Part shown: positions 13,409 to 35,265 of the stretch, piece after piece
How positions within the stretch are numbered: position 1 is the first letter of the stretch
Layout of the letters: each line of letters opens with the position of its first letter
Assembly: GCA_965203175.1 (NCBI GenBank)
Contig: OZ241867.1
Coordinates: forward strand, 3,680,001-3,744,000
From: Candidatus Latescibacterota bacterium
Lineage (GTDB): Bacteria > Latescibacterota > UBA2968 > UBA8231
DNA: 64,000 nt
Direction: 5' to 3'
Notes under the pieces: generated by a model
Database searches by the model: none
What the model was told of the DNA's origin: nothing
Seen by the model: only the letters and a program-made list of their open reading frames with translations
Position numbers and translations under genes: made by a program

Positions 13409-14167
13409 TCACTCTACGTCGAGGATGTAGCGCGCTAGCGGCGAGAGCCGTTGGGCGGTTGCGGGCCGCAAGTACTCGCGCTGGTTGGTCTGCTGTGGGT
13501 GCTCGCGGGCGATAAAGGCGCAGTGCAGGGTGCGGCGGGGGGCGTTACTGTCGTTGCGATACGAGCTGTGCCAGAGGCTGCCGTTGAACACGGCGACCGA
13601 GCCGGCGCGGCCCGTTAACTGCACTTGCTCGGGGTGATCGGCCAAGGGATCGGCCACGTGGTCGGCGACCCTGCCGGGTTTGCGGTGACTGGCGGGGACG
13701 CAGCGGGTCGCGCCGTTGACTTGGGTGAAATCGTCGAGCATCCACATGGAGTTGACGACGTGGTACGGCCCGCCGGGCACAGTGTGTTGACCCCAATCCG
13801 CATGTAGGGCTTGTAAACCGTTGCCGGGCAGTGGATCGTGCCCATTGAGCGAGTGCAGCTTAAACGGCCGCTGCAAGACGTGGAAGACTGCCGTCAGCAG
13901 CGTCGGTTGTAGGTACACGGCGTCGAAGACCGTTCCTTTGTTGACCAAATCGGCGAGGCGGCGCACGCCTTCAACTTGGGAGACCTCAGCGCCGGCTTTG
14001 TCGCCTTCGCGGGCAAAGGTCGCGTCAAAAGCACGGCGCAACTCGGCCAGCCAGTCGGGGGCGATGACCTCTTCCAATATGACGAAGCCGTTGGTGTCCA
14101 GCGCGCTGCATTGCGCGGGCGTCAGCGGCTGGGGGACGAACCCTCGTTGCAACAGTTCGCTGTCCAA
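13409..14167 (-). CDS. Phytanoyl-CoA dioxygenase (PhyH) family Fe(II)/2-oxoglutarate dioxygenase
   Basis: HxD motif LHADW, LDDFTQVNGATRCVPASH, distal His LWH and Arg (PRR). Probable TTG start at 14167 after GAAGGA. Confidence 0.88.
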   Translation of the reverse strand: MDSELLQRGFVPQPLTPAQCSALDTNGFVILEEVIAPDWLAELRRAFDATFAREGDKAGAEVSQVEGVRRLADLVNKGTVFDAVYLQPTLLTAVFHVLQRPFKLHSLNGHDPLPGNGLQALHADWGQHTVPGGPYHVVNSMWMLDDFTQVNGATRCVPASHRKPGRVADHVADPLADHPEQVQLTGRAGSVAVFNGSLWHSSYRNDSNAPRRTLHCAFIAREHPQQTNQREYLRPATAQRLSPLARYILDVE

Positions 14168-14184
14168 AGCGGATGTTCCTTCGC

Positions 14185-15348
14185 TTAGCTTCCGGCTTGT
14201 TGCGCGAATTCGCAGATGGTGGTCACGCCGCGGCGGATGTGTTCTTCGGAGGCGGCGATGGAGATGCGCACGTGGTCGCGGCACATCTGGCCGAAGGTGC
14301 TGCCCGGGGCCACGGCCACGCGCTTTTCTTTGAGCAGTCGGATGGCGAATTCGCCGGAGTCCATGCCAGCCGCGGAGATGTCGATCATCAGGTAGATCGC
14401 GCCGCCTGGGGTGTAGCGGTACAAGTTGTATTCTCGCAGGACATCAAGGGCAATGTCGCGGCGGCGCGCATAGGCGCGGCACATGGCGGCTACGTCGTCT
14501 TGCGGGCCATCGAGCGCGTCGGCTGACGCGAGTTGGGAAAATCCCGTGCCACACGAGATAAACGGCTCTTGGAGCTTGGTAGCTAGTTCGATGTACTCGG
14601 GATTGGCACGGGTGAAGCCGACTCGGTAGCCGGTCATGGCATAGCTTTTGGACATGCCGGAGACGATGATGGCGCGTCCGTCCGCATCGTGCGGCAGCGC
14701 GCTCTGATGCGGTTGATCGAAGACGATCTGGCCGTAGATCTCGTCGGACAGCACCCACAAATCATGGCGCTGGGCCAAGTCCATGAGTTGGCGCATCAGG
14801 GCCTCGTCGTACACTTGGCCGGTGGGGTTAGAGGGCGTGCAGAGGAGGAGGAGCTTGGTGCGGGGGCTGACTAGGCGGTCGATTTCGTCGAGGTCGGGCA
14901 GAAAGTGGTTTTTCGCCCGCAGATTGTAAAAGACGGGTTGTCCGTGGACGATGGAGACGGCCATCTCGTAGTTGGGCCAGCCTGGGTCGGGTAACAGGAC
15001 CTCGTCGCCCGGTTCGAGCAGGGCAAGGAAAGTGGTCGCCACGCTCATGACGGCTCCAGGGGTGACGAGGATGTTTTCGCTGGTGGTGGACACGCCGGTG
15101 CGGCGCTCAAAGTAGCGGGCTGCGGCCGCGCGCAACGCATCGACTCCGGCGTTGGGGACGTACTTGGTGTGGCCGGCGCGCGCGTAGCGGCAGGTGGCTT
15201 CGACAATGGACTCTGGGGTGGCAAAATCGGGTTGCCCGACTTCGAGGTGGATGACCTCGCCCGTCTTTTCGACGGCCCAAGCCAAATCCATGATCTCGCG
15301 GATGCCCGAGCGGGGAATAGACGCGGGGATGCGGGCAAAAGGCTTCAT
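14185..15348 (-). CDS. PLP-dependent class I/II aminotransferase (aspartate aminotransferase-like)
   Basis: LEVGQPDF, PSNPTG, SDEIY, SKSYAMTGYRVG (PLP lysine), VAVAPGSTFG, VRIS. ATG overlaps the upstream stop. Confidence 0.92.
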   Translation of the reverse strand: MKPFARIPASIPRSGIREIMDLAWAVEKTGEVIHLEVGQPDFATPESIVEATCRYARAGHTKYVPNAGVDALRAAAARYFERRTGVSTTSENILVTPGAVMSVATTFLALLEPGDEVLLPDPGWPNYEMAVSIVHGQPVFYNLRAKNHFLPDLDEIDRLVSPRTKLLLLCTPSNPTGQVYDEALMRQLMDLAQRHDLWVLSDEIYGQIVFDQPHQSALPHDADGRAIIVSGMSKSYAMTGYRVGFTRANPEYIELATKLQEPFISCGTGFSQLASADALDGPQDDVAAMCRAYARRRDIALDVLREYNLYRYTPGGAIYLMIDISAAGMDSGEFAIRLLKEKRVAVAPGSTFGQMCRDHVRISIAASEEHIRRGVTTICEFAQQAGS

Positions 15349-21545: not shown

Positions 21546-23429
21546 CTAGGTGGCGGATCGAGTGCGGGCGTGCAAGAAGACCATGAGCGAAGCGAGGTCC
21601 GCGGGCGAGACTCCGGAAATGCGCGAAGCCTGTCCTAGGGTCTGCGGGCGGATGGTCTCGAGCTTTTGGCGCGCCTCAGTTGAAATGTTCAGTCCGGGAG
21701 CGGCGAAGTCAAAATCGGTCGGCAGGCGCAGGGATTCGAGGCGCTTGAGCTTTTGCGCTTGGGTTTCTTGGCGCTTGATGTACCCCGCGTATTTGATCTC
21801 GGCCTCGACGTGTTCGGCCGCGTCTGGGGACAGGGGCTGTGGAGGCGGGGCGAATTCGCAGAGGTGGTCGTAGTTGAGTTGGGGGCGGCGCAGCAACTCG
21901 GCGAGCGAGGTCGATTCGGCAATGGGAGCAGTGCCCTGCCGCGTCAAGACCTCTTGCACTTTTTCAGTCGGTTTGACGCGCTCGTGTTGTAGGCGTTCGC
22001 GCTCGGCACCCACCTGTTGCTGCTTGGTTTGAAACTGGTGCCACAGGTCGTCGCCGATCAATCCCAGGGCCCGGCCCTTGGCCATCAAACGGTCGTCGGC
22101 GTTGTCCTCGCGCAAGAGCAGGCGGTGCTCGGCGCGCGAGGTGAAGATGCGGTACGGCTCTAGCGTGCCTTTGGTCACGAGGTCGTCGATTAGCACGCCG
22201 ATGTAGGCGTCGGCGCGCGTGAGCACGAGCGGGTCGTCGCCGCGCGCCTTGAGTACGGCGTTGATACCGGCCATAATCCCTTGGGCCGCGGCTTCTTCAT
22301 AGCCAGTGGTGCCGTTGATCTGGCCGGCGAAGAAGAGATTGGCCACGCGCTTGGTCTCTAAGTGGGGGTAGAGTTGGGTCGGCGGGGCGTAATCGTATTC
22401 GACTGCGTACGCCGGGCGCAGGATCTCGGCTCGTTCGAGGCCGGGCAGGGAGCGCACGATCTGGGGCTGCAGGGTCTCCGGCAGGCTCATCGACAGGCCG
22501 TTGAGATAAAATTCGAGAGTGCGCCGCCCCTCTGGCTCGACGAAAACTTGGTGTCGTTCCTTGTCGGCAAAGCGCGCGATTTTGTCCTCTATGGAGGGAC
22601 AGTAGCGCGGGCCGATGCCCTCGATGCGCCCACTGTACATGGCCGAGTGCGCTAGGTTGTCTTGGACGAGCTCGTGGGTGTGGGCGTTGGTGTAGGTGAT
22701 CCAGCAGGGCATTTGCGGCTGGATGATCTTTTGCACCGCATAGGAAAAGGGGCGCGGCGGGTCGTCGCCGGGCTGTTCTTCGAACGCGGCAAAGTCGAGG
22801 GTGCGGCCATTGACGCGCGGTGGGGTGCCAGTCTTGAGCCGGCCGGTTTCAAAGCCGAGCGCGACCAAGCCCTCGGCGGCCTTTTCAGCGGCAGTCTCGC
22901 CGGCGCGGCCTGCGCTATAGGAGAAATCGCCGACGTGAATTTTGCCGCGCAGGAAGGTGCCGGTCGTGAGGATGACGGTGCGGCTGCGGTAGGCGATGCC
23001 GCCCTTGACGCCGATGCCTTGGACGGTTCCGTCCTCGATTAGCAAGCTCTCCATCAGGCCCTGGCGGATGTCGAGATGTTCTTGCTGTTCGCAGGTGTAC
23101 TTCAGTTCGAATTGGTAGTCCTTTTTGTCGGCTTGGGCTCGCGAGGCGCGCACGGCTGGGCCGCGCGAGGTGTTGAGGCGGCGGAATTGGATGCCGGTGC
23201 GGTCGATGTTGACGGCCATCTGGCCGCCGAGCGCGTCGATTTCCTTGACGATGTGCCCCTTGCCGATCCCGCCGATAGCCGGGTTGCAGGATAGCTGGCC
23301 AATGGTATCCAAGTTCATGGTCAGGAGCAGGGTCTCGGCTCCCATGCGCGCCGCGGCGAGCGCGGCCTCGGTGCCGGCGTGGCCGCCGCCGACGACGATG
23401 ACTTGGTACGCTTTGTCGTAGAAAATCAC
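21546..23429 (-). CDS. mnmG: tRNA uridine-5-carboxymethylaminomethyl(34) synthesis enzyme MnmG (GidA)
   Basis: [67 protein letters not shown]. Confidence 0.97.
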
Positions 23430-23707
23430 GATCGTTTATACTCGGCGAGGATGCGGTCGCCTTCCTCTTCGGTTTCGCGCAAGAGCGTTTGTAGCACGTC
23501 TTCGGGCGTGCCGGCGCGCTCTTGCTTTGCGGACCAGTGCCACTGATCCAAATAGGCGTCGGTGCCCACCTGTCCCTCCTGCATGGCGATGCGGTCGATC
23601 GCGAGTTGGAAGCGGCCGGGCAGGGTGTGCGAACTCGGTCGGCGGCCGGCAAAGAGCTTGATTTGCACGGGAATGTCGCGCCAGTAGAGGATCTGGTATT
23701 GAATCAT
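23426..23707 (-). CDS. Small 'virulence factor' domain protein (family found beside MTHFR/methyltransferase genes)
   Basis: [10 protein letters not shown]...[14 protein letters not shown]...DAYLDQW pattern. 4-nt overlaps with both neighbours. Confidence 0.8.
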
Positions 23708-24693
23708 GGGTTGAGTGCTCGGCGAAAGGCGCGGATGTGATCCGGCGTGGTGCCGCAGCAGCCGCCGATGATCTGGATGCCAGCGGCTGCTAAGTTTGGG
23801 ATAAACGCGGCCATTTCCTCGGGACTTTGCGAGTAGATGGTACGGAGGGCGCTGTTGAGCTGCGGCATACCGGCATTGGGATAGATCATCAGCTTCTTGT
23901 CGAGGCCGCGCTCCTGCATGGCGGCCTTAAACTGCTCAACGCCGTGGAGGGCGTATGGCATGCCGGTGTGCTCGCTGCGCCGGGTTTCAGCGCCGCAGTT
24001 GACCCCGACGAGGTGGACATAGTCGAGGAGATTGTCGCCGCCGGAGTATTGGCCCGAGGCGAGTACGTCCAAAAGGTCGGCGACCGAGTGACCCCAATCG
24101 GTGCGATAGACGACCTGCTTGCTTTTGCGGTCCTGCGTGTATTTGAGCGCGAGGTTGACGGCAATGGGCAGGCCGGTCTGGCGGGCGATGTCGCAGACCA
24201 TGGCCGCTTCGACGGCTGAAAACTGGGTCTCAATGGAGAAAAAATCGACTCCGCCTTCGCAGAGCGCGTCGATGATGCGCTGATGCGCGGCGCGAACCTT
24301 GTCGTTGGCAATGCCGAAATCCGTACTACCCGCGTCGGCCTCGATGGCCCCGGGGGAGGGGCCGATGGAGCCGGCGATGAAGACATCGCGCTCGCTGCGA
24401 TCCCGGGCGCGCTGTGCCAACTCGGCCCCGCGCCGGGCCAGCGCACCGGCTTGGGTCGGGTCTTTGTCGGCCATGGCGAGGTGCAGCTCAGAGGCGACAA
24501 AGGTGTTGGTGCCAATGCAGTCGGCACCTGCGGCAATGTATTCGGCGTGGATATCGACGACCTCCTCTGGATAGCTTTCGTTGGCAAGGGTGGAGTTGGT
24601 CAGTTCGATTTGGCGGGCGAAAAGCTCGGAGCCAAAACCGCCGTCGTATAAGAGAGGGCGCGGGTCGTCAAGGCGCTGGAGGAAAAGGGACAC
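23704..24693 (-). CDS. Standalone homocysteine S-methyltransferase (Hcy-binding module of a split methionine synthase)
   Basis: LYDGGFGSEL, HAEYIAAGAD..TNTF, AGSIGP, GVNC, YPNAG, IIGGCCGTTPDHI (Zn-binding Cys). Probable GTG start at 24693. Confidence 0.9.
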   Translation of the reverse strand: MSLFLQRLDDPRPLLYDGGFGSELFARQIELTNSTLANESYPEEVVDIHAEYIAAGADCIGTNTFVASELHLAMADKDPTQAGALARRGAELAQRARDRSERDVFIAGSIGPSPGAIEADAGSTDFGIANDKVRAAHQRIIDALCEGGVDFFSIETQFSAVEAAMVCDIARQTGLPIAVNLALKYTQDRKSKQVVYRTDWGHSVADLLDVLASGQYSGGDNLLDYVHLVGVNCGAETRRSEHTGMPYALHGVEQFKAAMQERGLDKKLMIYPNAGMPQLNSALRTIYSQSPEEMAAFIPNLAAAGIQIIGGCCGTTPDHIRAFRRALNP

Positions 24694-24707
24694 AGATTGG
24701 TCTCCGT

Positions 24708-25625
24708 CTAAGATAGGGTGTCGGCGCGGGAGGCGTTGAACAGCCATTCGAGCAAGCGTTGGCCAAAGTCCGGCGCAAAGTGCGGTACGTGCGTGCCTTG
24801 CTCTATGGTCCACAGCTCGATGGTGACGTCGTTGCGGCAGCCCGTGCGGTAGCGAGTGCGGACGGTCTCGGAGCCGTCGAGTTTTTGGTCGAGGTCGAGT
24901 GGGGGGAGGGTTTCTGGATCGGTGAGGTCGCAGCGTGCGAGTGCAGCCCAGCGCAGCGCGACTTCTTCTGCGCCTGCGTACTCATTTTCACCCGTGCTGC
25001 CGTCGTAGGCTACGACCTTGTCGTTTGTGCCGTGGATTTGTAGCACCGAGACTGGGGATGCGAAGGCACAACGGGAGGGGTCGCTAAAGGAAGTGCCAGC
25101 GAGGCTGGCAATGGCGACTAGGCCCGGGATGCCTTCGCAGGCGAGTCGGTAGGACATGAAGCCGCCGTTGGAGTGCCCGAGGGCGAAGATGCGCTCTACG
25201 GCGATGTGCGTGGCGGCCTCTTCGAGTAGTCCGGAAAGGTATTTCACGTCATCGACTTGGGTGTTGTGGAGATCGCAGCAGAAGTCCGTGGCGTTCCAGA
25301 AGCGCTTGCCATCGGGGTCGCGCGTGCCGTTGGCCATGATGAGGGCGAAGCGATCAGCATTCACCCGCTTCGAAAGACCAAAATAGCGGTCGTGTTGGGC
25401 CAAGTGGCTGGTGAAGCCGTGCAGGCTGAGTACGAGCGGAATGGGCGTCTCGGGGTCGTGATCGGCTGGGAGGACCAAGAAAGCCGGGCGTTGATCGCCC
25501 AACGTGTGGACGATGTGATCCTTGCTCAGGTCGGCGACCGGTTCGGTATGGGATATTTCTTCGCCGCAGGCGATGAAGGTCAACGACAGCAGAGCAGCAA
25601 AGGTACAGATTTTGTTGTTCCGCAT
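24708..25625 (-). CDS. Alpha/beta hydrolase lipoprotein (PHB depolymerase/LpqC-like esterase)
   Basis: Lipobox FIAC, PLVLSLHG, WNATDFCC, nucleophile GHSNGG, HGTND, catalytic His GTH. GAAAGGAGG RBS. Confidence 0.85.
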   Translation of the reverse strand: MRNNKICTFAALLSLTFIACGEEISHTEPVADLSKDHIVHTLGDQRPAFLVLPADHDPETPIPLVLSLHGFTSHLAQHDRYFGLSKRVNADRFALIMANGTRDPDGKRFWNATDFCCDLHNTQVDDVKYLSGLLEEAATHIAVERIFALGHSNGGFMSYRLACEGIPGLVAIASLAGTSFSDPSRCAFASPVSVLQIHGTNDKVVAYDGSTGENEYAGAEEVALRWAALARCDLTDPETLPPLDLDQKLDGSETVRTRYRTGCRNDVTIELWTIEQGTHVPHFAPDFGQRLLEWLFNASRADTLS

Positions 25626-25728
25626 ATTGACCCTCCTTTCTGTTCGCGATCTACAGGCCGACGGCAACAAAGTCCGCCCTGAGCTTCAGTTTTTAATCTA
25701 CGGGATAAGGCCAATAATAACCAATGCG

Positions 25729-26757
25729 CTAGGCAGCGAGTTCGCCTTTGCGATAGGCGCGCAGGAAGGAGGCGCAGTACTCGTCTCGGCCTAGCAACAT
25801 ATCCTCAGCTAGCTGGTAGGGACGGGCTTGGCGGTCGAGGGCAAAGATGTCGGCTAGGGAGGTGGTAGTCGGGTCCATGATCGCGCTGTCGGCACCGGCT
25901 TCGACGGCCAGCAGCAAGAAGACATCGTTGATCAAGTGGCGGCAGGGCAGGCCGAAGGAGACATTGGAGAAGCCACCGGTGATATGGACGTCGGCCCCTA
26001 ATTCGCCGCGCAGTTGGCGGATGGCGTCAAAAGCGTGGTGGCCGAATTGTGCATCAACCGAGATGGGGAAGATCAGGGGGTCGATGTAGAGGTCAGAAAG
26101 CGGCAGGTCCAATGCCTGTGCCTTATCGACCATTTGCCGAGCGTGGTCAATTCGTTCCTCGGCGCTTTGCGGCATGCCGGACTCGCCCGCCGAGGTGATG
26201 ATGACTTGGGCGTTGTACTGTTTGGCCAGCTTTAGGGCTTCGGGCCGCTCTAAAGACGCGGAGTTGAGCAGTAGGCGCTGGGGGTGGTCGGCCCCGGCTT
26301 CAAGGCCGACGGCGAGGGTGTCTAGCTGGGAGGAGTCGATGGCCAGCGCCGTCTGCGATATGGCCGATACCGCCTGTACCAACCAGCGCATGGCCTCTTG
26401 CCGCTCTGCGGGCTTGAGGGATATCTCATCGACATTGAGGTCGAGGAAATCGGTGCCAGCCGCTTCTTGGCGCTGTACTTGGCGACGGAGGTAGTCGAGG
26501 GCATCTGTGTTGCCGAGCATGGCTTGTTGCACGGCGATTTTGAGGTGTTTGACGCGGCCTTCCTCGTAGTCTTGGGTTGTTTTGACTGACTCGGGAATCT
26601 GGAGGAAGCGGCGCTTGTTATTGGAGTCGCGGAAGCGCACCGATTCGACGCCTTGGGGGTCTGGGCCGATGAGCTTGCCTTTGCGCAAGACGACGCGGGT
26701 AGTGTGGATGTTTTCGCCGATGACGAAGAAGGGACGGTCCGTACCGGGGATGTTCAT
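25729..26757 (-). CDS. Pterin-binding methyltetrahydrofolate:corrinoid methyltransferase (AcsE/MetH folate-module-like)
   Basis: VIGENIHTTR, LDLNV, AIDSS, LLNS, YIDPL, GGFSNVSFGLP, DSAIMDP. Confidence 0.88.
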   Translation of the reverse strand: MNIPGTDRPFFVIGENIHTTRVVLRKGKLIGPDPQGVESVRFRDSNNKRRFLQIPESVKTTQDYEEGRVKHLKIAVQQAMLGNTDALDYLRRQVQRQEAAGTDFLDLNVDEISLKPAERQEAMRWLVQAVSAISQTALAIDSSQLDTLAVGLEAGADHPQRLLLNSASLERPEALKLAKQYNAQVIITSAGESGMPQSAEERIDHARQMVDKAQALDLPLSDLYIDPLIFPISVDAQFGHHAFDAIRQLRGELGADVHITGGFSNVSFGLPCRHLINDVFLLLAVEAGADSAIMDPTTTSLADIFALDRQARPYQLAEDMLLGRDEYCASFLRAYRKGELAA

Positions 26758-26867
26758 TGGTCTGCTCCAATTTATTTCGGGGTGTAAGTTACTTCGAGTT
26801 TGATACCGTCAGGGTCGGAGAAGAAAGTCGCATAGTATCCCTCTCCGTACTCTGGACAATGTTTACC

Positions 26868-27449
26868 CTATTGAGTAGATGCCTGTCTTCGTTGCAGGTC
26901 GCTCAGTTCAGCAAAGGCACCTTCTGTATCTAGGTGTGTGAGCCAGAAAGTTTGCAGTGCCTCAGTTGAGGCGCTGAGGATGATATCGTCTTTGCCAAGC
27001 ACTTCATGGCGAATTGCGTTGGGATTCTTCGCAAGCAGCTCTTGCAACCAGTCTGAATCAGGAAAACTTATCTGTAATGTTGGCTCAATTTGCTTGACGT
27101 ATGCAAAGGAATGGACGGGCAGGACGTGAAGTTGGTAGAAAACACCTTCCTGCCGATCTAATTCTGTGGGGAAAAAATCCAAAAACTTTTTCCCTTTGAT
27201 GTCCAAAAGGTGAACCGCAAGGATGCTCTGTTCGCCGTCCTCCTCGTAAACGACGCACTTATACTGTTGCTCACCCTGTTGCGAGAATTCCCATATCTCT
27301 TTTGAGTTTTCCTCTGCCCACTGGCCAATAAGGCGTGCATCAAAGATCACATTTTCATCGGTATATAGTGGGTGCAGAGACCGGACTATACATCCAGATA
27401 GCAAGAGCAAAATCCCGAACGGGAAGACCAATAGCTTTAAACGCTGCAT
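26868..27449 (-). CDS. Hypothetical lipoprotein (lower GC)
   Basis: Lipobox LLLSGC followed by IVRSLHPLY. GAAAGGAGG RBS. Visibly more AT-rich than its neighbours. Confidence 0.75.
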   Translation of the reverse strand: MQRLKLLVFPFGILLLLSGCIVRSLHPLYTDENVIFDARLIGQWAEENSKEIWEFSQQGEQQYKCVVYEEDGEQSILAVHLLDIKGKKFLDFFPTELDRQEGVFYQLHVLPVHSFAYVKQIEPTLQISFPDSDWLQELLAKNPNAIRHEVLGKDDIILSASTEALQTFWLTHLDTEGAFAELSDLQRRQASTQ

Positions 27450-27514
27450 GATTCATCCTCCTTTCGGTCGTTTGCTTGTCTAACCCCCAAGCCCGCGAGT
27501 TTTGTCACTGTGCG

Positions 27515-29068
27515 TCAGTCGTTCTTCTTGCCGCGGTGATCTCTTTGCAAAAAGGCGTTGGCCCAGGCGCTAGTGCCCTGTAGTGCCGCGTCCTTGATGA
27601 CGGCTGCATCGCCGAGCATTTGCTCCTCTTCGCCGTAGGCCTTGAGGCGGTCGTACGCGCGCGCCCAGATGCAGTCTTTGTCGCCGATTTCGCACTTGCC
27701 TTGGCGCGTGCCGCCGCAGGGGCCGTTGCGCTGGTTTTTGACGCACTGCGATTCCGGGCACAAGTAGGCGATGTCCGGCAGCGAGCAATCGCCGCAGTCG
27801 CGGCAGTCAAAAGCGGCGATTTTGAGCGCGTGCTCTGCGGTGTGCAGGGGCTTTTGCAGTTTCCCGCCCTCGACTTTGCGCGCCAGGGCCGCTCCGAGGC
27901 GAAATAGAGCTTTGCCCGGCTCAAAGACGCGGTCGTGGACCTGGCGATTGATTCGGTACGTTAGGGGAGCGCGGCGACGGCCACTAGGCGTCTTTGAGTC
28001 GAGATAGGCTTGGTTGACTTGGGTGGAGGCCAAGCCGGTGTTCGGGTCTTCTTCGAAATAGAAGAATTCGCCGGGGCGCGAGTAGCGGATCTGGCGGGCG
28101 AAATCGCGCCAATCATCTGCAGCGTACTCGGCGGCTAGTTCCAAAATGCGGCCGTATTCTTCCGCCCCGATGTGCCCTCCCAAGTACACGCCGCGGTAGC
28201 CTAGGCCTCGGGCAATGGCGCATTGCTGGGCGGCGAATTCGAGGAAGAAGGCCCTGCCCTTATCGGGAGAAGCGGCTTGCTTTTGCGCGACGGCGAGCAA
28301 TTCGTCGGTGACTTCGACGCCGGGGATGCGGCCAGCGTGAAAGAAGCGGGCCACGCCTCCGGACAAGACGAAGACGTTGGCGATGACTGGAACTTGGAGG
28401 CCGTGCAGAGCCATGTACTTGAGCAGTTCGTCCTGCTTGCGGGCGTCGTAGCCGATTTGGTTGATGATGAAGCGAGCGCCGGTGCGGATCTTTTTGGCCA
28501 GCTTGAAATACTGTGGCATGACCTCGGCTTCGAGCCGCTTGTGGTTGTTGACTACGGCGCCGAGAAAAAAGCGGGTGGGTTTTAACGGACGTGGTTTGCG
28601 GCCCGGCGAGGCGTCTTCGAAGCGCCCCTCGTTCATGTCGGAGAGCAATTGCAACAAGCCGACTGAATCAATGTCGAACACGCCGCCGGCCTGGCCTTGG
28701 TACCCGGCTATGGGGTAATCGCCCGACAAAGTGAGAATGTTATTGAAACCCCCATCGGCTAGCTTCCAAGCTTGGCCCATCAACCCGTTGCGGTTGAAGT
28801 CTTTGCAGGACAGGTGGATGATGACTTCTTGGCCGCTTTCTTTGAGCGGAGTTCCCAGCGCGTCCGCGGTAATCATGGGATTGCCGCCGGGGTTGTCGGT
28901 AATCGAGAGGGCGTCAAAGCGCGGGTCGGCGGCTAGGGCCTGGGCCATCTCTAGCACCCGCTTGCCGCCGCGGTCGGCTAGGGTGCCCCGGGACGTGACC
29001 AGCTCGACGCAGGTGATAAAGCGGTCGGTCTCTTCTAGCAGATGGCGCAGGGTGGCAGTTTGCTGCAT
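27515..29068 (-). CDS. Methylenetetrahydrofolate reductase with fused C-terminal MetV-like Cys-rich domain
   Basis: SITDNPGG, HLSCKDFNR, LTLSGDYP, DIDSVGLL, KKIRTGARFIINQ; C-terminal CRDCGDC...CPESQCVKNQRNGPCGG...CE...CIW. Confidence 0.9.
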   Translation of the reverse strand: MQQTATLRHLLEETDRFITCVELVTSRGTLADRGGKRVLEMAQALAADPRFDALSITDNPGGNPMITADALGTPLKESGQEVIIHLSCKDFNRNGLMGQAWKLADGGFNNILTLSGDYPIAGYQGQAGGVFDIDSVGLLQLLSDMNEGRFEDASPGRKPRPLKPTRFFLGAVVNNHKRLEAEVMPQYFKLAKKIRTGARFIINQIGYDARKQDELLKYMALHGLQVPVIANVFVLSGGVARFFHAGRIPGVEVTDELLAVAQKQAASPDKGRAFFLEFAAQQCAIARGLGYRGVYLGGHIGAEEYGRILELAAEYAADDWRDFARQIRYSRPGEFFYFEEDPNTGLASTQVNQAYLDSKTPSGRRRAPLTYRINRQVHDRVFEPGKALFRLGAALARKVEGGKLQKPLHTAEHALKIAAFDCRDCGDCSLPDIAYLCPESQCVKNQRNGPCGGTRQGKCEIGDKDCIWARAYDRLKAYGEEEQMLGDAAVIKDAALQGTSAWANAFLQRDHRGKKND

Positions 29069-29075
29069 GGCCTGA

Positions 29076-30968
29076 TCAGACGGAGGCCGCGGTCAGTTTG
29101 CGGGGCATGGGTTTGAATTGGCAGCCCTCGACGAAGAGCTCAAAAAAGTCGGGGGTCGTCTCCAGTTCGACGTGCTCAATGCGCTTGGCCAGCGCTTCGA
29201 TGTGGGCGCGTTTGCGGGCGGAGAGAAGCACTTCGCGCGCACCTTGAGCGGCGGCATTGCCCACCTTGGCGATGCGCGCTGTGGGCACCGGGGCCAAAAA
29301 GCCGATGTCGATGGCGGCTTGGACATCAACGTAATTGGCAAAGCCGCCGGCGAGGTAGAGCTGTTGCACGTCGCCGGGATTCAGGCCCAAGGTCCGCAAG
29401 ACGATGTACTGACCGCAGAAATTGGCGGCTTTGGCTTGGGCGAGGTTTGAAGCGTCGAGGCGCGAGAAGGTGATGCCGCGCTCGGGGACTAGCTCAAACT
29501 GGCGCTTTTTGTCGGCGAAGACGCCTTTGGGAGTCATTAAGTCGTGGCGGCTCAACTCGGCGAGGAGGTCGATTAGCCCGGAGCCGCACAGTCCCGCCGG
29601 CGCGGTGTCGCCGATGGTCTCCCACTGCCAGTGCGCGCCGTCCCAGCGGATGGATTCAATGGCTCCATCGCAGCCGGGCATCCCATAGGTGATGCCTCCG
29701 CCTTCAAAGGCCGGGCCGGCCGGGCAAGAGGCCGCGACGAGACGGCCTTGGTGGGCGACGACGACTTCGGTGTTGGTGCCCACATCGACCAGCATCGCGC
29801 TCTCGCTGGCAAGGTCCATATCGACGGCGACTAAGTCGGCGGCCACATCCGCGCCGACGTGGCTGGCAATCAGCGGCAGCGAGTACGCGCGCGCTTTGGG
29901 ATTGGCCTTCAGGCCGAGGCGGCGGGTCTTTTCAACTAGGCTGGTCGCGGTTCGTTCGCCGCTTAGGTATTCGTGCTCAATGCGCGATTTGTAGGGCTTT
30001 TGGCCGATGCTCTGCACGTCGAGGCGGAAGAGGATGTCGCGCATCGTCGAGTTGCCAGCGACCGCGATCTCGTAAATTTCCTGCCGCACAAAGCCGCCGC
30101 GCCGGCAGAGGTCTGCGATCTCGTGGTTGAGCGCCTTGACCAGGGCTTGACGCAGCTCGCCGGGGTGTTGCCCGTCGTAGGAAATGCGGTGCATGATGTC
30201 GCTGCCGCCAAAGCGCTGCGGGTTTTCAAATGCGCTCAAATGCACGCTCTGGCCCGTCTCCAGATCGACTAAGTCGAGGACAATAGTCGTGGTGCCCAAG
30301 TCGATGGCTAGGCCGTAGAGGTGGCCGCGGTATTGATCGATTTCCTCGTCGCCGTAGTAGATGGCTTGCCCGCGCCGCTGGACTACTGGGTCGATCTCAG
30401 CGGGGCGATCTACGGTTTGGGTCAGTATGCGGGGCGTGCGGAAAAGCGGTGCAAACTCGATATCGACATCGGCGTCTTCGACTTTGGCTTGGCAGGCGAG
30501 CCGGAACTCACCGCCGAGGAAGTCCTCGGCCGGTGTGGGCGCGTTGAGGGCTTGCGCGCCGCTCGTGACTTCGACGATGCACTCGTGGCAGTGGCCAGTG
30601 CGCCCACAGGAAGTGGGCACGCGGGCGCCGAGTTGATCCGCGTAGTCGAAGAGAGTGCCGTCGGCAGACAGCGGGTAGGAGGTGCCGTCGCAGCGGATTT
30701 GCCCGCGGCCGGGTGTGGCCGGGCGTTGGTCCGTCTCCCAGGCCGAGCGGTAGTCGAGTTGGTCGTCGCTGCCGCACTGGAACAGCCCGCCCGGCTCTTT
30801 TGGCTTGCGCTGGTTGCGGCAGCCGAAGTGAGCGGTGCATTGGTCGAAGCGGTTCTTGTACGGGCAGCGGAAGGTCGCCTGCACGTCGGCATGGGTGGCA
30901 ATGCCCGCGAGAATGCCCGACAGGCGGTCGAGGCTCTTTTGGTACTCTTGGGGGTCGATTTGGGTCAT
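29076..30968 (-). CDS. RACo/RamA-type ASKHA ATPase corrinoid reductive activase (DUF4445) with [2Fe-2S] domain
   Basis: CGRTGHCHEC...RLACQA ferredoxin domain; AIDLGTTT, NPQRFGGSDI, GNSTM, DVGTNTE, AGPAFEG, GLCGSG, AGGF, GNAA. Confidence 0.92.
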   Translation of the reverse strand: MTQIDPQEYQKSLDRLSGILAGIATHADVQATFRCPYKNRFDQCTAHFGCRNQRKPKEPGGLFQCGSDDQLDYRSAWETDQRPATPGRGQIRCDGTSYPLSADGTLFDYADQLGARVPTSCGRTGHCHECIVEVTSGAQALNAPTPAEDFLGGEFRLACQAKVEDADVDIEFAPLFRTPRILTQTVDRPAEIDPVVQRRGQAIYYGDEEIDQYRGHLYGLAIDLGTTTIVLDLVDLETGQSVHLSAFENPQRFGGSDIMHRISYDGQHPGELRQALVKALNHEIADLCRRGGFVRQEIYEIAVAGNSTMRDILFRLDVQSIGQKPYKSRIEHEYLSGERTATSLVEKTRRLGLKANPKARAYSLPLIASHVGADVAADLVAVDMDLASESAMLVDVGTNTEVVVAHQGRLVAASCPAGPAFEGGGITYGMPGCDGAIESIRWDGAHWQWETIGDTAPAGLCGSGLIDLLAELSRHDLMTPKGVFADKKRQFELVPERGITFSRLDASNLAQAKAANFCGQYIVLRTLGLNPGDVQQLYLAGGFANYVDVQAAIDIGFLAPVPTARIAKVGNAAAQGAREVLLSARKRAHIEALAKRIEHVELETTPDFFELFVEGCQFKPMPRKLTAASV

Positions 30969-30981
30969 TGGAGTTTAGGCG

Positions 30982-31737
30982 CTACTCGTCCTCAATTTCG
31001 TTCAGCAAGTCCTTGGCCAAGGACACGCAGGCGAGGGCGTCCTTGCCGTAGCCGTCGGCACCCATGTCGTCGGCAAATTCTTGGGTTACGGGCGCGCCGC
31101 CGACCATGATTTTGACGTCGTCGCGCAAGTCGGCGTCGATGAAGGCCTCGATGGTCTTGCCCATGTTGGGCATGGTGGTGGTCAACAGGGCCGACATGCC
31201 CAAGAGCGGAGCTTCGTGCTCTTCGACGGCATCGATGAAATCGTCTTCGGAGGTATCTACGCCGAGGTCGTGGACGACGAAACCGGCCCCGCGCAGCATC
31301 ATAATGCACAAGTTTTTGCCGATGTCGTGGAGATCGCCCTTGACCGTGCCCATGATCACAATGCCGATGGGTTCGACGCCCGAGGCCGAGAGAATGGGCT
31401 CGATGTGGGTCATGCCGGCCTTCATGGCGCGGGCGCAGGCGAGCACTTCGGGGACGAAGATGAAGTTTTCGCGGAATTTGATGCCGACGATGGCCATGCC
31501 GGCGATCAGTCCGTCGTCCATGACTTCGAGGGCCTCCACGCCGCCGGCAATGGCTTGGCCGGTCAGTTCATCGACCGTTAGGTGGTCGCCGTCGATGAGG
31601 GCCGCGGCGATGTTCTGCATCTGCTCGCTGGCTTGGGCGAAGATGCCGATGATGCGCTCGCGCTCTTCGTCGCGCTCGATGAATTCTTCGATCTCATCGC
31701 GGATAAATTCGTTGGCGATATCGGTAATGTCTGCCAT
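30982..31737 (-). CDS. Corrinoid (B12-binding) methyltransferase protein (MtaC/MtbC-like)
   Basis: Cap domain GLIAGMAIVG..F...FVPEV; GTVKGDLHDIGKN (DxHxxG), SALLTTT, MVGGAP, GADGY. Acidic N-terminal extension. Confidence 0.95.
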   Translation of the reverse strand: MADITDIANEFIRDEIEEFIERDEERERIIGIFAQASEQMQNIAAALIDGDHLTVDELTGQAIAGGVEALEVMDDGLIAGMAIVGIKFRENFIFVPEVLACARAMKAGMTHIEPILSASGVEPIGIVIMGTVKGDLHDIGKNLCIMMLRGAGFVVHDLGVDTSEDDFIDAVEEHEAPLLGMSALLTTTMPNMGKTIEAFIDADLRDDVKIMVGGAPVTQEFADDMGADGYGKDALACVSLAKDLLNEIEDE

Positions 31738-31750
31738 AGGATCTCTTCTT

Positions 31751-32785
31751 TTAGTTGCGCGCTTGGTCGCGGTGCCACTCTTGTACCGTGCGGGGAATGG
31801 CCTTGAGGTTTTCGATGGAAGTCTGCAAGGGGATGGCGCACTCTGGGCCGATGAGCTGGACGCCGGCTTCGAGGTTGCGCAGGACTTCGGCACCGACGAC
31901 TTCTGGCCCTTTAGAAAAAAGGGTTTCGGGGTTGTTGATGTTGCCTACTAATGAGATGCGGTCGCGCACGATTTGGGTGGATTCTTCGGGCGTGTTCTTG
32001 GAATCGAAGTGGAAGGCCGCCATGCCGGTTTGGGCGATGTACTCCATGCGGTCAACCGTGCGGCCGCAGATGTGGAGGATGATGGGCACCGAAAGCCGCT
32101 CGGCAAACTCGATGTGCAGGTCGCGCAGGTAGCGCTCGTAGTACTCGCCGCTGACGAGGTCGCCAGTGGCGTGGTCGGGCAGGGTCAAGGCATCGGCACC
32201 GGCCTCGATCTGCGCTTGCCCGAACTCAATGGTGATCTCCTTCATGCGGTCGAGGCAGAGCTTGGTCTTGCCGGGATCGTCGAGCGACAGCAGCAGAAAA
32301 GGCTCGACCCCAAAGCAGTGGTAGCCCAGCGACCAAGGCCCCATGGTCTTGCCGACGATGGCAACTTCGTCGCCGTATTCCCTGCGCAGAATCTTGATCG
32401 CCTCAGTGACGCAGGCCGTGTCGGGATGGGTGCAGAGGTCGGCGGGGATTTTGATGTCGTCTGGCTCGTGCCAGATTGGCTCGCTCATGCGGACGGTCGG
32501 CCAGTTGTCCTTTTGCTCCCACTGGATTTTGCACCCGAGGGCCGAGGACTCTTGGATGATGGTGAAGACCGGCATGATGGTGTCAAAGCCCAACTCGGTG
32601 TAGCCAGTGGCGGCTAGCCGCGCCATGAGCTCGGGCTCGCGATTGGCCGCGGGGAAGGGGGCATCGACGAGGTCCATCAATTCGACGGTGGCCACCGAGG
32701 TCGGGTTGCAGAGCGGGGTGCGGTCCACGGGCTGGCGGGCGAGGGCGGCGAGGACGCGCTCGCGGCTGGTCATCGAAGAGGTCAT
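31751..32785 (-). CDS. MtaA/CmuA family (URO-D fold) corrinoid-dependent methyltransferase
   Basis: MTSRERVLAAL...VDRTP, FPAANREPELMARLA, GPWSL, QIEAGAD, ILHICG (HxC), GNIN, IGPECAIP (third Zn ligand), ENLKA. Confidence 0.9.
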   Translation of the reverse strand: MTSSMTSRERVLAALARQPVDRTPLCNPTSVATVELMDLVDAPFPAANREPELMARLAATGYTELGFDTIMPVFTIIQESSALGCKIQWEQKDNWPTVRMSEPIWHEPDDIKIPADLCTHPDTACVTEAIKILRREYGDEVAIVGKTMGPWSLGYHCFGVEPFLLLSLDDPGKTKLCLDRMKEITIEFGQAQIEAGADALTLPDHATGDLVSGEYYERYLRDLHIEFAERLSVPIILHICGRTVDRMEYIAQTGMAAFHFDSKNTPEESTQIVRDRISLVGNINNPETLFSKGPEVVGAEVLRNLEAGVQLIGPECAIPLQTSIENLKAIPRTVQEWHRDQARN

Positions 32786-32796
32786 GGTAGACTCCT

Positions 32797-33438
32797 TTAT
32801 TCCTGGGAGCTAGGGGCTGAGAGCACGCCGCGGCTGGCCATGGATTCGGCCTCGCGCATGGCGGCGCGCACGTTGGGGGCGCGGACGAGCAACAGGCCGA
32901 TTAGAGCATCGTGGGAGTGGCCGCAGCCGAAGCGAGCTTGGTTGGGTTGGTCGGCGACTTCTTCCATCTCACCGAGGCGGATCAGGCCGCGGGCGATGGT
33001 GGCGACGCGGCGTTCCACGCCTCGGACCTGTTCGGTGGCGCGGGCTTCGTACAGGCCTTGTCCGAGGCTAGCGACGGCGATAGTGGCGTTGGCCTTTTTG
33101 TCGAAGATGTGCAGTGGCCGCGGCTCTATGGGTTGCCCCGGCGGCAGCTTGCAAGCCTCTAGGAAGAGCCGCTTGACTGCGAGCAGATGGGCGTGGCCGC
33201 AGGAAAAGCTGAGCAGGCCATCGCTGGTTTGTTCCATGCCTCCGAGTACCTGCATGGCGCGGGCGACTCCGGCGATGCGCTCGGCCGCCCCGGGGAGACG
33301 GCTGTAGGTGTGGACTTGGTAGCAGGGAGAGTCAGAGTCGTCCGGGGAGTAGAGCGCAATGGAAATGTCGTCGAAGTGGGGATCCATGGAGACCAATTCG
33401 ACGCGCGAGCCAAGGTCTAAAGTTTGTGCCATCTGCAT
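32797..33438 (-). CDS. Hypothetical protein with two tandem domains, each ending in F-x-C-G-H-x-H
   Basis: First gene of the operon, GAGGA RBS. Internal repeat ending FSCGHAH and FGCGHSH. Confidence 0.8.
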   Translation of the reverse strand: MQMAQTLDLGSRVELVSMDPHFDDISIALYSPDDSDSPCYQVHTYSRLPGAAERIAGVARAMQVLGGMEQTSDGLLSFSCGHAHLLAVKRLFLEACKLPPGQPIEPRPLHIFDKKANATIAVASLGQGLYEARATEQVRGVERRVATIARGLIRLGEMEEVADQPNQARFGCGHSHDALIGLLLVRAPNVRAAMREAESMASRGVLSAPSSQE

Positions 33439-33477
33439 TTCCTCTTGACAGCAAAGCGCTAAGTTGATTTGTTAGAC

Positions 33478-33506
33478 AAAATAGCTAATGGTCAGACCAT
33501 CGGCAA
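33478..33506 (-). promoter_or_regulatory. Promoter of the methyl-transfer operon with a FadR/GntR-type operator in its spacer
   Basis: Minus strand reads TTGCCG-N17-TATTTT. The spacer holds the palindrome ATGGTCAGACCAT (33488-33500), matching the TGGT-N3-ACCA FadR-subfamily box. Confidence 0.75.
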
Positions 33507-33527
33507 ATCTTTTTTCGCTATCCGCTA

Positions 33528-34286
33528 TTGAATACCTTGGCTCACTCTACTAAGAAAGCCGCAGCCGCGGCCATGCGCCCGGTGCAGCGCACATCTGTAA
33601 GCGACGAGATTATCGCGCAGATAACCGATTTAATCGAGCGCAACGTCCTCAAGCCCGGCGACAGGCTGCCGCCGGAGCGGGAGTTGTGCAAGCGCTTTCA
33701 GGTTGGGCGCTCCTCGCTGCGCGAAGCTCTGCGCTCGTTGTCCATGATGGGCTTGCTCGACGGTCGCGTGGGCGAGGGCACCTTTGTCTGCGACAAGGGC
33801 CAATACGTGGAGCGGGCGTTGCAATGGGGGTTTTTGCTCGACGGCAAGAAGCTCCAAGACCTGAGCGAGACGCGGATGATGCTCGAGTCGCAAAACGCCT
33901 ATTTGGCGGCTGAGCGGGCCACCGCCGAGGATTTGGCGGCCATTGCCGATGCGCTGGCCGGCATGGCCAGGGGGCTGGCCGACGCGGGGCGCTTTCTCGC
34001 CAGCGATTTGCAGTTCCACCTACTTATCGCCCGGGCCACGCACAATTCCATTCTCTACAGCTTGCTTGAAACGACTCGTAACTATCTGCAAGAATGGATC
34101 AAAGAAAGCTTGGCGGAGCCGTCGCTGGCTGGCCCTCGGGCCGAACTCTCGCTAGCGGAACACCGCCAGATCTTGGAGGCACTGCAGCGGCGGGATGCAG
34201 AGGCCGCGCGGCAAGCGATGGCGGCGCACATCCGCTCCAGCAGCGGGGATTTGCAGCGGATTAGCCGTCGATCAGGGTCCGGTTGA
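33528..34286 (+). CDS. FadR-subfamily GntR transcriptional regulator
   Basis: LKPGDRLPPERELC..F.VGRSSLREAL...GEGTFV wHTH; FCD domain (D..FH, N, EHRQIL, M.AH). Confidence 0.93.
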   Translation: MNTLAHSTKKAAAAAMRPVQRTSVSDEIIAQITDLIERNVLKPGDRLPPERELCKRFQVGRSSLREALRSLSMMGLLDGRVGEGTFVCDKGQYVERALQWGFLLDGKKLQDLSETRMMLESQNAYLAAERATAEDLAAIADALAGMARGLADAGRFLASDLQFHLLIARATHNSILYSLLETTRNYLQEWIKESLAEPSLAGPRAELSLAEHRQILEALQRRDAEAARQAMAAHIRSSSGDLQRISRRSGSG

Positions 34287-35265
34287 CGAATTCAGTGACT
34301 TCCTCGATTCGCCCCAATCCCGTTAAAATCAGGCTCTGGGCAATGCGCCGCGAGAGCCCGACGATGCGTTCGTCGTCGAGTGCGGCGGGCTGGCGGCCGT
34401 CGGTCGCGCTCAACAGCAGGCAGCCGAGGTCGCGCACGGCTTGGTGTTTGACTTCCTCGGCTTTCTTGTAGCTCGCGCTCTGAAAATAGCTATTCCAGAA
34501 TACATTGACGGCTTCTAAATAAGCGGCTTTTTGGGCGGTATTTTGCATGGCCTTGATGCACATATCGGCCGTGTAGAAGGCGAGGTCAAAAGTGGGGTAG
34601 CCGTAGTGGGCGGTGGCAAAATCGACCCAGTAGGGGTGGCCGTCGACGACCCATACATTGCGGGGCCGCAGGTCGCCCAAGACGAGGCAAATCCCCTCGT
34701 TGAGCAGGAGATTGGTGTGGACGGCAATGGCCTTTTTGAGGTCGGGATAGGCGTTGGCGATGTAGTTGTAGTGCGGGTCAATGCGCAGTTGCTCAAAAGC
34801 CTTAGTGGATGCAAACTCATCGGCGACCTCAGACGAGCCGGCGGTCTCGTTGTGGACAGTGGCCAGCAACTCGCCGCACTGGACGGCGATTTGCAGATCG
34901 ATGCGGCCGTTGACCAAGTCGCCCTCCCACGATAGGGCGTTGTGCGGTGGTGGGGTCGTCACGAGAATGAAGTCCGTGCGGTCTTCGAGCAAGACTTCCG
35001 GCAAGATCTCGGGAGCGAGGAGATGCCCCAAGCGTTCGATACAGCTTTTCTCGGCGAAGATGCGCCGCCGATCGATCCACCAGCGCTCCTTGATTTGGAC
35101 GCGCGAGTGCGCCTGCTTGACGATCCAAGTCTGGTTGGACGACGCCACGTAGTACACCCGATTTTTCATCCCGTCGCTCAAGGTCTGGACGCGGATCGGA
35201 CCTCCGTTGGCGAGCAGTTTCTTGCGTTTCAGATATTTGGGTATGGCCTTTTTATCTAGGTTCAT
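34261..35265 (-). CDS. Aminoglycoside phosphotransferase/5-methylthioribose kinase-like protein
   Basis: LSDGMKNRV, IVKQA, FEQLRIDP, LGDLRPRNV, VDF, GYPTFDL. Confidence 0.75.
   Translation of the reverse strand: MNLDKKAIPKYLKRKKLLANGGPIRVQTLSDGMKNRVYYVASSNQTWIVKQAHSRVQIKERWWIDRRRIFAEKSCIERLGHLLAPEILPEVLLEDRTDFILVTTPPPHNALSWEGDLVNGRIDLQIAVQCGELLATVHNETAGSSEVADEFASTKAFEQLRIDPHYNYIANAYPDLKKAIAVHTNLLLNEGICLVLGDLRPRNVWVVDGHPYWVDFATAHYGYPTFDLAFYTADMCIKAMQNTAQKAAYLEAVNVFWNSYFQSASYKKAEEVKHQAVRDLGCLLLSATDGRQPAALDDERIVGLSRRIAQSLILTGLGRIEEVTEFVNRTLIDG

Follow-up and report, generated by a model that had tools for sequence, protein, structure and literature searches.

A putative methyl-donor module of an MtaA-like methyltransferase and an orphan protein at the head of a split methionine synthase cluster in Latescibacterota

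Corrinoid methyltransferase systems outside MetH have long been viewed as a speciality of anaerobes. One such system, MtgBCDE, is reported from aerobic marine bacteria, where its corrinoid is held in common with methionine synthesis (Mausz, 2025, PMC12478193). The mtg locus is described there as a hub with a dual function, methionine synthase and glycine-betaine demethylase; its substrate enzyme is a glycine-betaine methyltransferase of the MttB family, and co-located genes are noted in Sinorhizobium meliloti. Fitness data from Phaeobacter had already shown a three-part methionine synthase that needs a RamA-like protein and a protein of the DUF1638 family (Price, 2018, PMC5764234). The genetics in these two accounts makes of such parts a methionine synthase that is also fed by a separate MT1, the methyltransferase on the donor side. 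The present work concerns a stretch of 64,000 nt from a Candidatus Latescibacterota bacterium (assembly GCA_965203175.1, contig OZ241867.1, positions 3,680,001 to 3,744,000), hereafter the window, and within it a cluster spanning positions 23426-34286, with genes called by Pfam and NCBIfam scans. As read from its genes, this cluster belongs to the MtgCDE type, in which a split methionine synthase dependent on cobalamin doubles as a hub for methyl transfer. What is new is the head of the operon, a module made of a corrinoid methyltransferase of the UroD superfamily (URO-D), akin to MtaA and CmuA, and of an orphan protein, here Unk213; the frame of the hub has been described (Mausz, 2025). An earlier note on this DNA had put the whole forward as an undescribed system, and this stands for the head: literature searches found no description of the orphan and URO-D pair, whereas the frame (split MetH, MetVF, RamA-type activase, PF13769) was published in 2018 and 2025. 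Its proposal of a single corrinoid hub serving both homocysteine and folate shares this fate, being upheld by homology to the mtg locus but already in print.

The pair at the head of a known hub

Among the best cultured relatives of the corrinoid protein, in a collection of plasmids, is a 'cobalamin-binding protein' from pSymB of S. meliloti. The mtg locus to which it belongs also carries bmt, an MttB-family gene, a ferredoxin gene, a DUF1638 gene, a 'virulence factor' gene, genes for an MTHFR C-terminal domain and for MTHFR, a methyl-tetrahydrofolate:cobalamin methyltransferase gene and one for an ASKHA protein. Six proteins of the window have counterparts there, with 28-45% identity (listed in the table below), and the orphan and URO-D genes have none. 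The reciprocal search (tblastn, E<=1e-4) with the MttB, DUF1638, ferredoxin and small hypothetical proteins of S. meliloti gave no match in the window or in the 80 related loci introduced below; none of the 55 open reading frames (ORFs) of the window matches PF06253, or the MttB or MtaB family, in agreement with the absence of such an MT1 that had been claimed from the letters. One module has thus been swapped for another, since the MttB, DUF1638 and ferredoxin genes are missing throughout and the URO-D and orphan genes have no equivalent in mtg.

When one genome per species was scanned by pattern, 442 species genomes proved to encode a relative of the orphan protein. The comparison of loci uses the best 80 of them, by tblastn with 10-kb flanks, so that counts for cluster genes lying farther off are limited by the flanks and by insertions. 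The hosts bear the names of Latescibacterota (the closest, up to 93%), Poribacteria, Gemmatimonadota, Planctomycetota, a Moanabacter and unclassified bacteria, several of these phyla, to which many of the best-matching genomes belong, being known as sponge-associated. The arrangement recurs in these loci beyond chance, as the earlier note had asked to see for the cluster as a whole. The URO-D gene directly follows the orphan gene in 78 loci; homologues of the corrinoid protein are found in 62, of the RACo-type activase in 61, of the MTHFR-MetV fusion in 42, of the homocysteine methyltransferase and of the PF13769 protein in 30 each, and of the pterin methyltransferase in 22, while the regulator, divergent upstream of the orphan gene, is found in 48. 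Four layouts account for this distribution: an array like that of the window (50 loci), a shorter one, layout B, made of the homocysteine methyltransferase, PF13769, orphan, URO-D, corrinoid protein and RACo genes with neither pterin methyltransferase nor MTHFR within 10 kb (12 loci), the orphan and URO-D pair alone (16 loci) and the orphan gene alone (2 loci). The pair is therefore one unit, being adjacent in nearly all loci and standing alone as a pair in those 16. The earlier proposal that substrate specificity resides in the URO-D protein and the unknown first gene fits both this adjacency and the lack of MttB and DUF1638 in the window and in the 80 loci. Over 50 distant loci, median identity is highest for the URO-D and corrinoid proteins (82% each), followed by RACo (65.5%), the MTHFR-MetV fusion (64%), the regulator (61%), the homocysteine methyltransferase (59%), the pterin methyltransferase (58%), the orphan (57%) and PF13769 (54%).

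The array tolerates insertions, as is visible from segments of several kb lodged between the corrinoid and RACo genes of close relatives (L001, L009, L013, L023 and others; about 6 kb in the first two) and from the HNH endonuclease gene that separates the URO-D and corrinoid genes at 11846-12631 of L080. Poribacteria have additions of their own. An Ldh_2 oxidoreductase gene adjoins the PF13769 gene in six of their loci (L034, L038, L054, L069, L078 and L080, at about 16-20 kb); where the flank extends as far as the homocysteine methyltransferase gene, it lies between that gene and the PF13769 gene. A PhyH-family dioxygenase gene follows RACo in L046, L061, L062, L078 and L080 (at about 14.5-16.4 kb), the family being present in nine loci. 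Both additions may point to a substrate that is a 2-hydroxy or 2-oxo acid.

The URO-D protein was compared with its named relatives by pairwise and hidden Markov model scores. It passes two curated cut-offs (TIGR01463, 254.6 against 235.4 bits; PRK06252, 261.2 against 244) and fails the equivalog cut-offs for MtaA and MtbA (NF040654, 230.8 against 400; NF041608, 197.8 against 600). Its alignment with MtaA 4AY7 covers the full length (residues 3-336, 180 bits, E 5.5e-52), and the matches that come next in the PDB are HemE, at E 1e-12 or worse. In the plasmid collection its best match reaches 26% identity, with no orthologue on the plasmid of any cultured organism. Three residues, H238, C240 and C316, are invariant in 24 orthologues and align with the LHICG and PGCGI motifs of MtaA 4AY7. 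According to the account of the superfamily by Kountz & Balskus (PMC10418091), a His-Cys-Cys site marks the S- and Se-methyltransferases, the O-demethylases having replaced the Cys ligands. The invariance of these ligands, their alignment with the MtaA motifs and this assignment of the site all speak for sulfur chemistry. A search for fusions gave five matches among 7993 scored candidates, four of which join URO-D to B12 domains: P0272-P0275, of 607-634 residues, combine a URO-D domain 78-83% identical to that of the window with cap and B12 domains, in an architecture like that of CmuA. Because the two genes lie 13 nt apart in the window, their products are the most conserved of the cluster and four natural fusions unite them, the evidence argues that the URO-D enzyme would act directly on the cluster's corrinoid protein.

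The orphan protein has no match in Pfam, NCBIfam or the PDB sequences. It has 1092 homologues of similar length, all of them unnamed or 'hypothetical' and none with a Pfam domain, and a profile search gathered 272 representatives of clusters at 50% identity, many of which are fragments. Its two halves are homologous to each other (hhalign probability 97.6%, E 3.3e-12), with D19 paired to D113, R54 to R144, C80 to C172 and H84 to H176, so that each half has one C-x3-H motif. Among 27 closer members C80, H84, C96, C172, H176 and D177 are invariant; in 26 more distant ones only G10, D19, D113 and R144 are, with H176 kept in at least 90%. The C-terminal tail, disordered in the model, is strongly conserved and takes two forms according to subfamily, RGVLSAPSQQ and RGQMTTxTLGFS. 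An AlphaFold (AF2) model of good quality (pLDDT 88.3, pTM 0.85) found no match in the PDB with Foldseek at E<=0.001; the family profile against PDB sequences and 26 members against Pfam at E<=10 gave chance-level matches, and the ESM Atlas no usable match. That Unk213 might be a diverged DUF1638 was considered and rejected (hhalign probability 0.14%). A prediction of the complex between URO-D and Unk213 scored 0.01, which is counted neither for nor against binding. Two chimeras turned up as well: P0121, a single member, joins the N-terminal part of MTHFR to the second half of Unk213, without the Cys/His motif, and P0202 (345 aa) runs from the N-terminal part of Unk213 into the start of a URO-D domain. 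Both are likely products of deletion or frameshift and were set aside as evidence from fusion.

Regulator, operator and the other genes of the window

The operon is faced by a divergent regulator which the earlier note had called FadR. Its class is right, with PF00392 and PF07729, the latter being the FCD (FadR-type C-terminal domain); FadR proper it is not (NF003444, 27.4 against 189 bits; TIGR02812, 26.7 against 249), and its best NCBIfam matches, NanR (155 bits) and LldR (137 bits), both stay below their cut-offs. A palindromic operator of the GT-N-AC type is the consensus form for the GntR family, and such a palindrome, with core TGGTCAGACCA, is conserved together with the regulator. In 46 of the 80 loci the core [T/A]GGTC[A/T]GACCA occurs in the 200 nt that precede the orphan gene. 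Of the 48 loci with a regulator 45 have this core, at 57-117 nt before the orphan gene; of the 32 where no regulator was detected one does, L011, whose contig ends 176 nt upstream, and the other 31 have none. The claim of a regulator with its box in the promoter region is thereby supported. In the window, ATGGTCAGACCAT falls within the 17-nt spacer of a weak minus-strand promoter, TTGCCG/TATTTT, read by eye, a candidate with 8 of the 12 consensus positions, too few for the promoter scan, which did not list it; the scan of the window for promoters and terminators gave nothing above shuffled expectation. The position of the operator suggests that the operon is repressed until an effector lifts the block. 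Carboxylates are what regulators with an FCD domain usually sense. The earlier note had also reckoned with a constitutive cluster serving purely as the cell's methionine synthase, and against this the conserved regulator argues.

On its other side the regulator adjoins a kinase gene of the APH family (34261-35265), the product of which weakly resembles methylthioribose kinase in its N-terminal part (51 bits with TIGR01767, for which the cut-off is 275). In 34 loci this kinase gene is conserved beside the regulator, together with lipoyl synthase. A link to the salvage of methylthio compounds is possible.

The minus-strand genes and their order had been read correctly from the letters: all eight named genes and the regulator are real, with the identities proposed. 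Two inserted ORFs, one lipoprotein-like and one esterase-like, had been overlooked. As homologues of the first occur in 1 of the 80 loci and of the second in 3, we take them to be lineage-specific. Both inserts within the methyl-transfer array are lipoprotein-like, and the G+C content of the 26-28 kb region is 0.56 against about 0.61.

Features of the cluster, with positions in the window; the last column gives the counterpart in the S. meliloti mtg locus
Feature	Position	Strand	Remarks	S. meliloti counterpart
GntR-family regulator with FCD effector domain, 252 aa	33528..34286	+	Divergent from the operon; PF00392 + PF07729	
Palindrome ATGGTCAGACCAT	33488..33500		Perfect, operator-like, in the 89-nt intergenic region; core TGGTCAGACCA at 33489-33499	
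Second, weaker GntR-type palindrome TTGTTAGACAA	33469..33479		Putative, read by eye	
Candidate operon promoter	33478..33506	-	Read by eye; -35 TTGCCG (33506-33501), 17-nt spacer, -10 TATTTT (33483-33478)	
Orphan protein Unk213, 213 aa	32797..33438	-	Internal duplication; CGHAH 80-84, CGHSH 172-176	
MtaA/CmuA-family URO-D (UroD superfamily) corrinoid methyltransferase, 344 aa	31751..32785	-	PF01208; zinc ligands H238, C240, C316	
Corrinoid protein, 251 aa	30982..31737	-	PF02607 cap + PF02310 B12-binding; likely ATG at 31737	Cobalamin-binding protein, 45% identity
RACo/RamA-type ATP-dependent reductive activase	29076..30968	-	2Fe-2S ferredoxin (Fer2) + RACo middle + ASKHA; PF00111, PF17651, PF14574	ASKHA protein, 31% identity
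MTHFR fused to MetV-type Cys-rich C-terminal domain, 517 aa	27515..29068	-	PF02219 + PF12225	Two separate matches: MetF, 28%; MTHFR C-terminal protein, 31%
Lipoprotein-like ORF, 193 aa	26868..27449	-	Insert outside the conserved system; no Pfam or NCBIfam family	
Pterin-binding methyltransferase (MeTr/MtgD-like), 342 aa	25729..26757	-	PF00809; PRK07535, 205.5 bits against a cut-off of 259	Methyl-tetrahydrofolate:cobalamin methyltransferase, 31% identity
Esterase-like ORF (PHB-depolymerase family), 320 aa	24708..25670	-	Insert outside the conserved system; NF050058, 96 bits, below cut-off	
Stand-alone homocysteine S-methyltransferase domain protein (MtgE/Bmt-like)	23704..24693	-	PF02574 at 188 bits	Bmt, 29% identity
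Small PF13769 'virulence factor' domain protein, 93 aa	23426..23707	-	PF13769 at 63 bits	'Virulence factor' beside MetV/MetF, 44% over 57 residues

The first five genes of the operon are spaced by 7-13 nt. Two starts required a choice. The ORF of the corrinoid protein, in which DLHDIG is the DxHxxG motif, reaches 31893, and the ATG listed was chosen as the orthologues have 247-254 residues; that of the homocysteine methyltransferase, which has the cysteine motifs NCG and GGCCG, reaches 24813, its likely start being a GTG preceded by GGAG. The PF13769 gene overlaps by 4 nt both the stop of the homocysteine methyltransferase gene and the start of mnmG/gidA. In ten loci (L020, L026-L028, L030-L033, L035 and L048) it is likewise placed directly before mnmG/gidA; MnmG uses methylene-tetrahydrofolate. 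The PF13769 protein, which has no cysteines, was modelled by AF2 with a pLDDT of 95.9, and Foldseek returned no match in the PDB at E<=0.001. MTHFR or homocysteine methyltransferase genes are always found with its gene, and for this reason its name of 'virulence factor' looks like a misnomer.

Elsewhere in the window, the O2-dependent enzymes mentioned in the earlier note are present, an acyl-ACP desaturase at 7005-7994 and a PhyH protein at 13409-14284. Rfam found no riboswitch (B12, SAM) and no other RNA family over the window. An ORF of 822 aa (17336-19804) combines apolipoprotein N-acyltransferase domains (LNT_N, CN_hydrolase) with a full TatC, an unusual fusion if real. A MgsA/WRNIP-type AAA+ ATPase of 745 aa (48242-50479) ends in a class-I methyltransferase domain. 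Finally, two EutN/CcmL-type microcompartment vertex genes lie beside ispH/lytB (10118-10940); the Pfam scan showed neither shell nor enzyme genes around them.

Donor and direction of methyl transfer

The reading we favour is that the pair loads the methyl group of a methylated thiol onto the common corrinoid, from which it goes to homocysteine or folate. The corrinoid protein would be kept as Co(I) by the RACo/RamA-type activase; it would exchange methyl groups with tetrahydrofolate via the pterin-binding methyltransferase, backed by the MTHFR of MetVF type, and give them to homocysteine via the PF02574 protein. In place of MtgB, the donor-side module would be made of URO-D and the orphan protein. 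The His-Cys-Cys zinc site of URO-D would bind the sulfur of a small methylated thiol, candidates being methylmercaptopropionate (MMPA), methanethiol or dimethyl sulfide (DMS), and related S-methyl carboxylates, and the enzyme would move the methyl group onto Co(I), with the orphan protein assisting the transfer, perhaps through docking or through the handling of substrate or product. Once on the corrinoid, the methyl group would serve to make methionine from homocysteine, or be oxidized via folate, and the GntR/FCD repressor, seated on its operator, would hold the operon off until an effector, probably a carboxylate, appears. That the pair does load the corrinoid is suggested by layout B, where URO-D is the only visible loader beside the homocysteine methyltransferase. 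We rank this reading ahead of its rivals, tentatively, its chances being a little short of even.

Several points weigh against it. Transfer from MMPA to Co(I) is reported as thermodynamically unfavourable in the MtpA preprint (10.1101/548461) and, the methylation of Co(I) by a thioether being uphill, an MtaA-like enzyme may run in reverse. The 82% conservation of URO-D is above what would be expected of a niche catabolic enzyme, and a housekeeping role would fit it too. The pair lacks a neighbouring corrinoid protein in 16 loci, and over the 80 loci neither a transporter nor an enzyme for the thiol product is consistently found beside it. The pterin methyltransferase of the 12 genomes with layout B may lie outside the 10-kb flanks. 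A few distant members of the Unk213 family are without the conserved Cys and His, so that a metal site is not universal, and repression is read from the position of the operator.

A bolder form of the same idea would make of the pair a hitherto unrecognized S-methyl demethylase in bacteria that live with oxygen. Methyl groups from MMPA, methanethiol or DMS would pass through the corrinoid to homocysteine, giving methionine without folate, as in layout B, and the orphan protein would be a metal-binding subunit with a new fold that pulls the uphill step from thioether to Co(I). In so specific a form the proposal is doubtful.

Of the competing explanations, the one that fares best turns the reaction round. 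URO-D would be an MT2, passing methyl groups from a corrinoid loaded by methyl-tetrahydrofolate to a thiol other than homocysteine (sulfide, methanethiol, a mercapto-acid or a cofactor-like thiol), for detoxification or biosynthesis, and the orphan would deliver or bind that thiol. The nearest characterized relative, MtaA, is itself a methylcobalamin:thiol methyltransferase (E 5.5e-52), the His-Cys-Cys site is in place, and transfer from methyl-Co to a thiolate is given as favourable (MtpA preprint, 10.1101/548461). Yet the 12 loci which have a homocysteine methyltransferase and no pterin methyltransferase within 10 kb would leave the enzyme with no visible donor, no coenzyme M (CoM)-related or thiol-biosynthesis gene is conserved nearby in the 80 loci, and two thiol acceptors on one hub, under a repressor of the substrate type, make for a less economical scheme. 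We consider this unlikely.

Somewhat less probable still is that the pair, with no external substrate, primes or rescues the corrinoid as a housekeeping accessory, taking the place of the DUF1638 protein of Phaeobacter. This would account for the conservation of URO-D and the corrinoid protein, higher than that of any other protein of the cluster, and for the lack of any transporter or catabolic gene accompanying the pair; moreover DUF1638, required in Phaeobacter (Price, 2018, PMC5764234), is absent from the window and from the 80 loci. It accords poorly with the finding that the orphan is unrelated to DUF1638, with the loci where the pair stands alone, away from any corrinoid or activase gene (16 loci), and with a conserved repressor and operator, unusual for a pure maintenance factor. 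Besides, MtaA-family enzymes appear in the account of Kountz & Balskus (PMC10418091) as substrate methyltransferases only.

A donor other than a thiol would be a methyl halide, in a Cmu-like pathway, or an O-methyl compound. Methyl halides were among the donors proposed in the earlier note, and the comparison weakens them: the methyltransferase domain of CmuA (pCMU01) is 26% identical to URO-D with 44 bits, against 180 bits for MtaA, and pCMU01, though it is in the plasmid collection, was not matched by URO-D at E<=1e-5. The gene set does run parallel to cmuA (methyltransferase and corrinoid), cmuB (pterin methyltransferase) and metF, CmuA keeps the H-x-C...C pattern when aligned with URO-D, and the fused forms of URO-D and corrinoid domains have CmuA-like architecture. 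Some GntR-family regulators sense aromatic acids. No folD or purU, however, was found among the window ORFs in Pfam scans, and the Cys ligands that O-demethylases replace (Kountz & Balskus, PMC10418091) are invariant here, which leaves this explanation with a slim chance. A methylated selenium substrate (methylselenol or dimethylselenide), as for the mlp clusters, with the orphan capturing the released selenide, is very improbable, for although a His-Cys-Cys site favours soft S or Se ligands, the orphan has conserved Cys/His pairs and an Mlp2 enzyme methylated selenide in vitro (PMC10418091), the window has a single URO-D gene together with folate and homocysteine methyltransferases, Pfam scans found no selenium-metabolism gene among its ORFs, and the mlp clusters in that report come from obligate anaerobes only.

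Place among described systems

With reference to what was known, a hub already described is fitted here with a different donor module, of the type found in methanogens, and with an unannotated protein family for which no relative in fold could be detected. Were a methylated sulfur compound the donor, the pair would provide a bacterial enzyme for a step such as the demethylation of MMPA or methanethiol, of which we found none from aerobic bacteria in the literature, and in host-associated bacteria it would tie the turnover of organosulfur compounds to the demand for B12 and the supply of methionine. If the S-methyl demethylase proposal is true, organosulfur cycling would gain an enzyme so far missing from it, as the pair is present in 442 species genomes. 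The conserved regulator and operator offer a direct experimental handle on the substrate.

The methanogen enzymes MtaA, MtsA and MtpA have in common with the present one the UroD fold, the His-x-Cys...Cys zinc site and a cognate small corrinoid protein, and forms fused to the corrinoid domain occur on both sides, as with MtsF (MtpA preprint, 10.1101/548461). They differ in that the host here is a bacterium, with O2-dependent enzymes in the same window, that the coupling is to homocysteine and folate methyltransferases rather than to CoM, and that URO-D, below the MtaA and MtbA equivalog cut-offs, is always paired with an orphan protein. The type 1 mlp clusters likewise set bacterial MtaA-like His-Cys-Cys proteins beside a corrinoid protein and a RACE/Ram activase, and a role in methyl-sulfur or methyl-selenium metabolism has been proposed for them (Kountz & Balskus, 2023, PMC10418091). 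As reported there, they need two or three distinct Mlp paralogues, have no folate methyltransferase, and belong to obligate anaerobes only. The type is defined by at least an Mlp2 and an Mlp3 paralogue beside the corrinoid protein and the activase, whereas the window has a single URO-D gene, accompanied by the orphan protein and by methyltransferases for folate and homocysteine. The CmuAB system of Methylorubrum extorquens CM4 (pCMU01) also combines a pterin methyltransferase and MTHFR with a methyltransferase that acts on a corrinoid domain, and the corrinoid protein of the window is 35% identical to the C-terminal part of CmuA. The cluster of the window differs by the low identity of URO-D to the CmuA methyltransferase domain, by having the two as separate genes and by the missing folD and purU.

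The closest system remains the MtgBCDE hub of Ruegeria, Phaeobacter and Sinorhizobium, which has in common with the present cluster a separate corrinoid protein, a pterin methyltransferase, a PF02574 protein, a RamA/RACo activase, MetV and MetF, and PF13769. Both follow the same logic, one corrinoid serving methionine synthesis and a donor-specific MT1. Where the described hub has MtgB, of the MttB family, with DUF1638 and a ferredoxin, the present cluster has the MtaA-like URO-D and the orphan protein instead; MTHFR and MetV, separate genes in S. meliloti, are fused in the window; and a GntR/FCD regulator with a conserved operator is added. The hosts differ too: MtgBCDE belongs to Pseudomonadota, and the cluster presented here to Latescibacterota and to metagenome-assembled genomes of the Poribacteria type.

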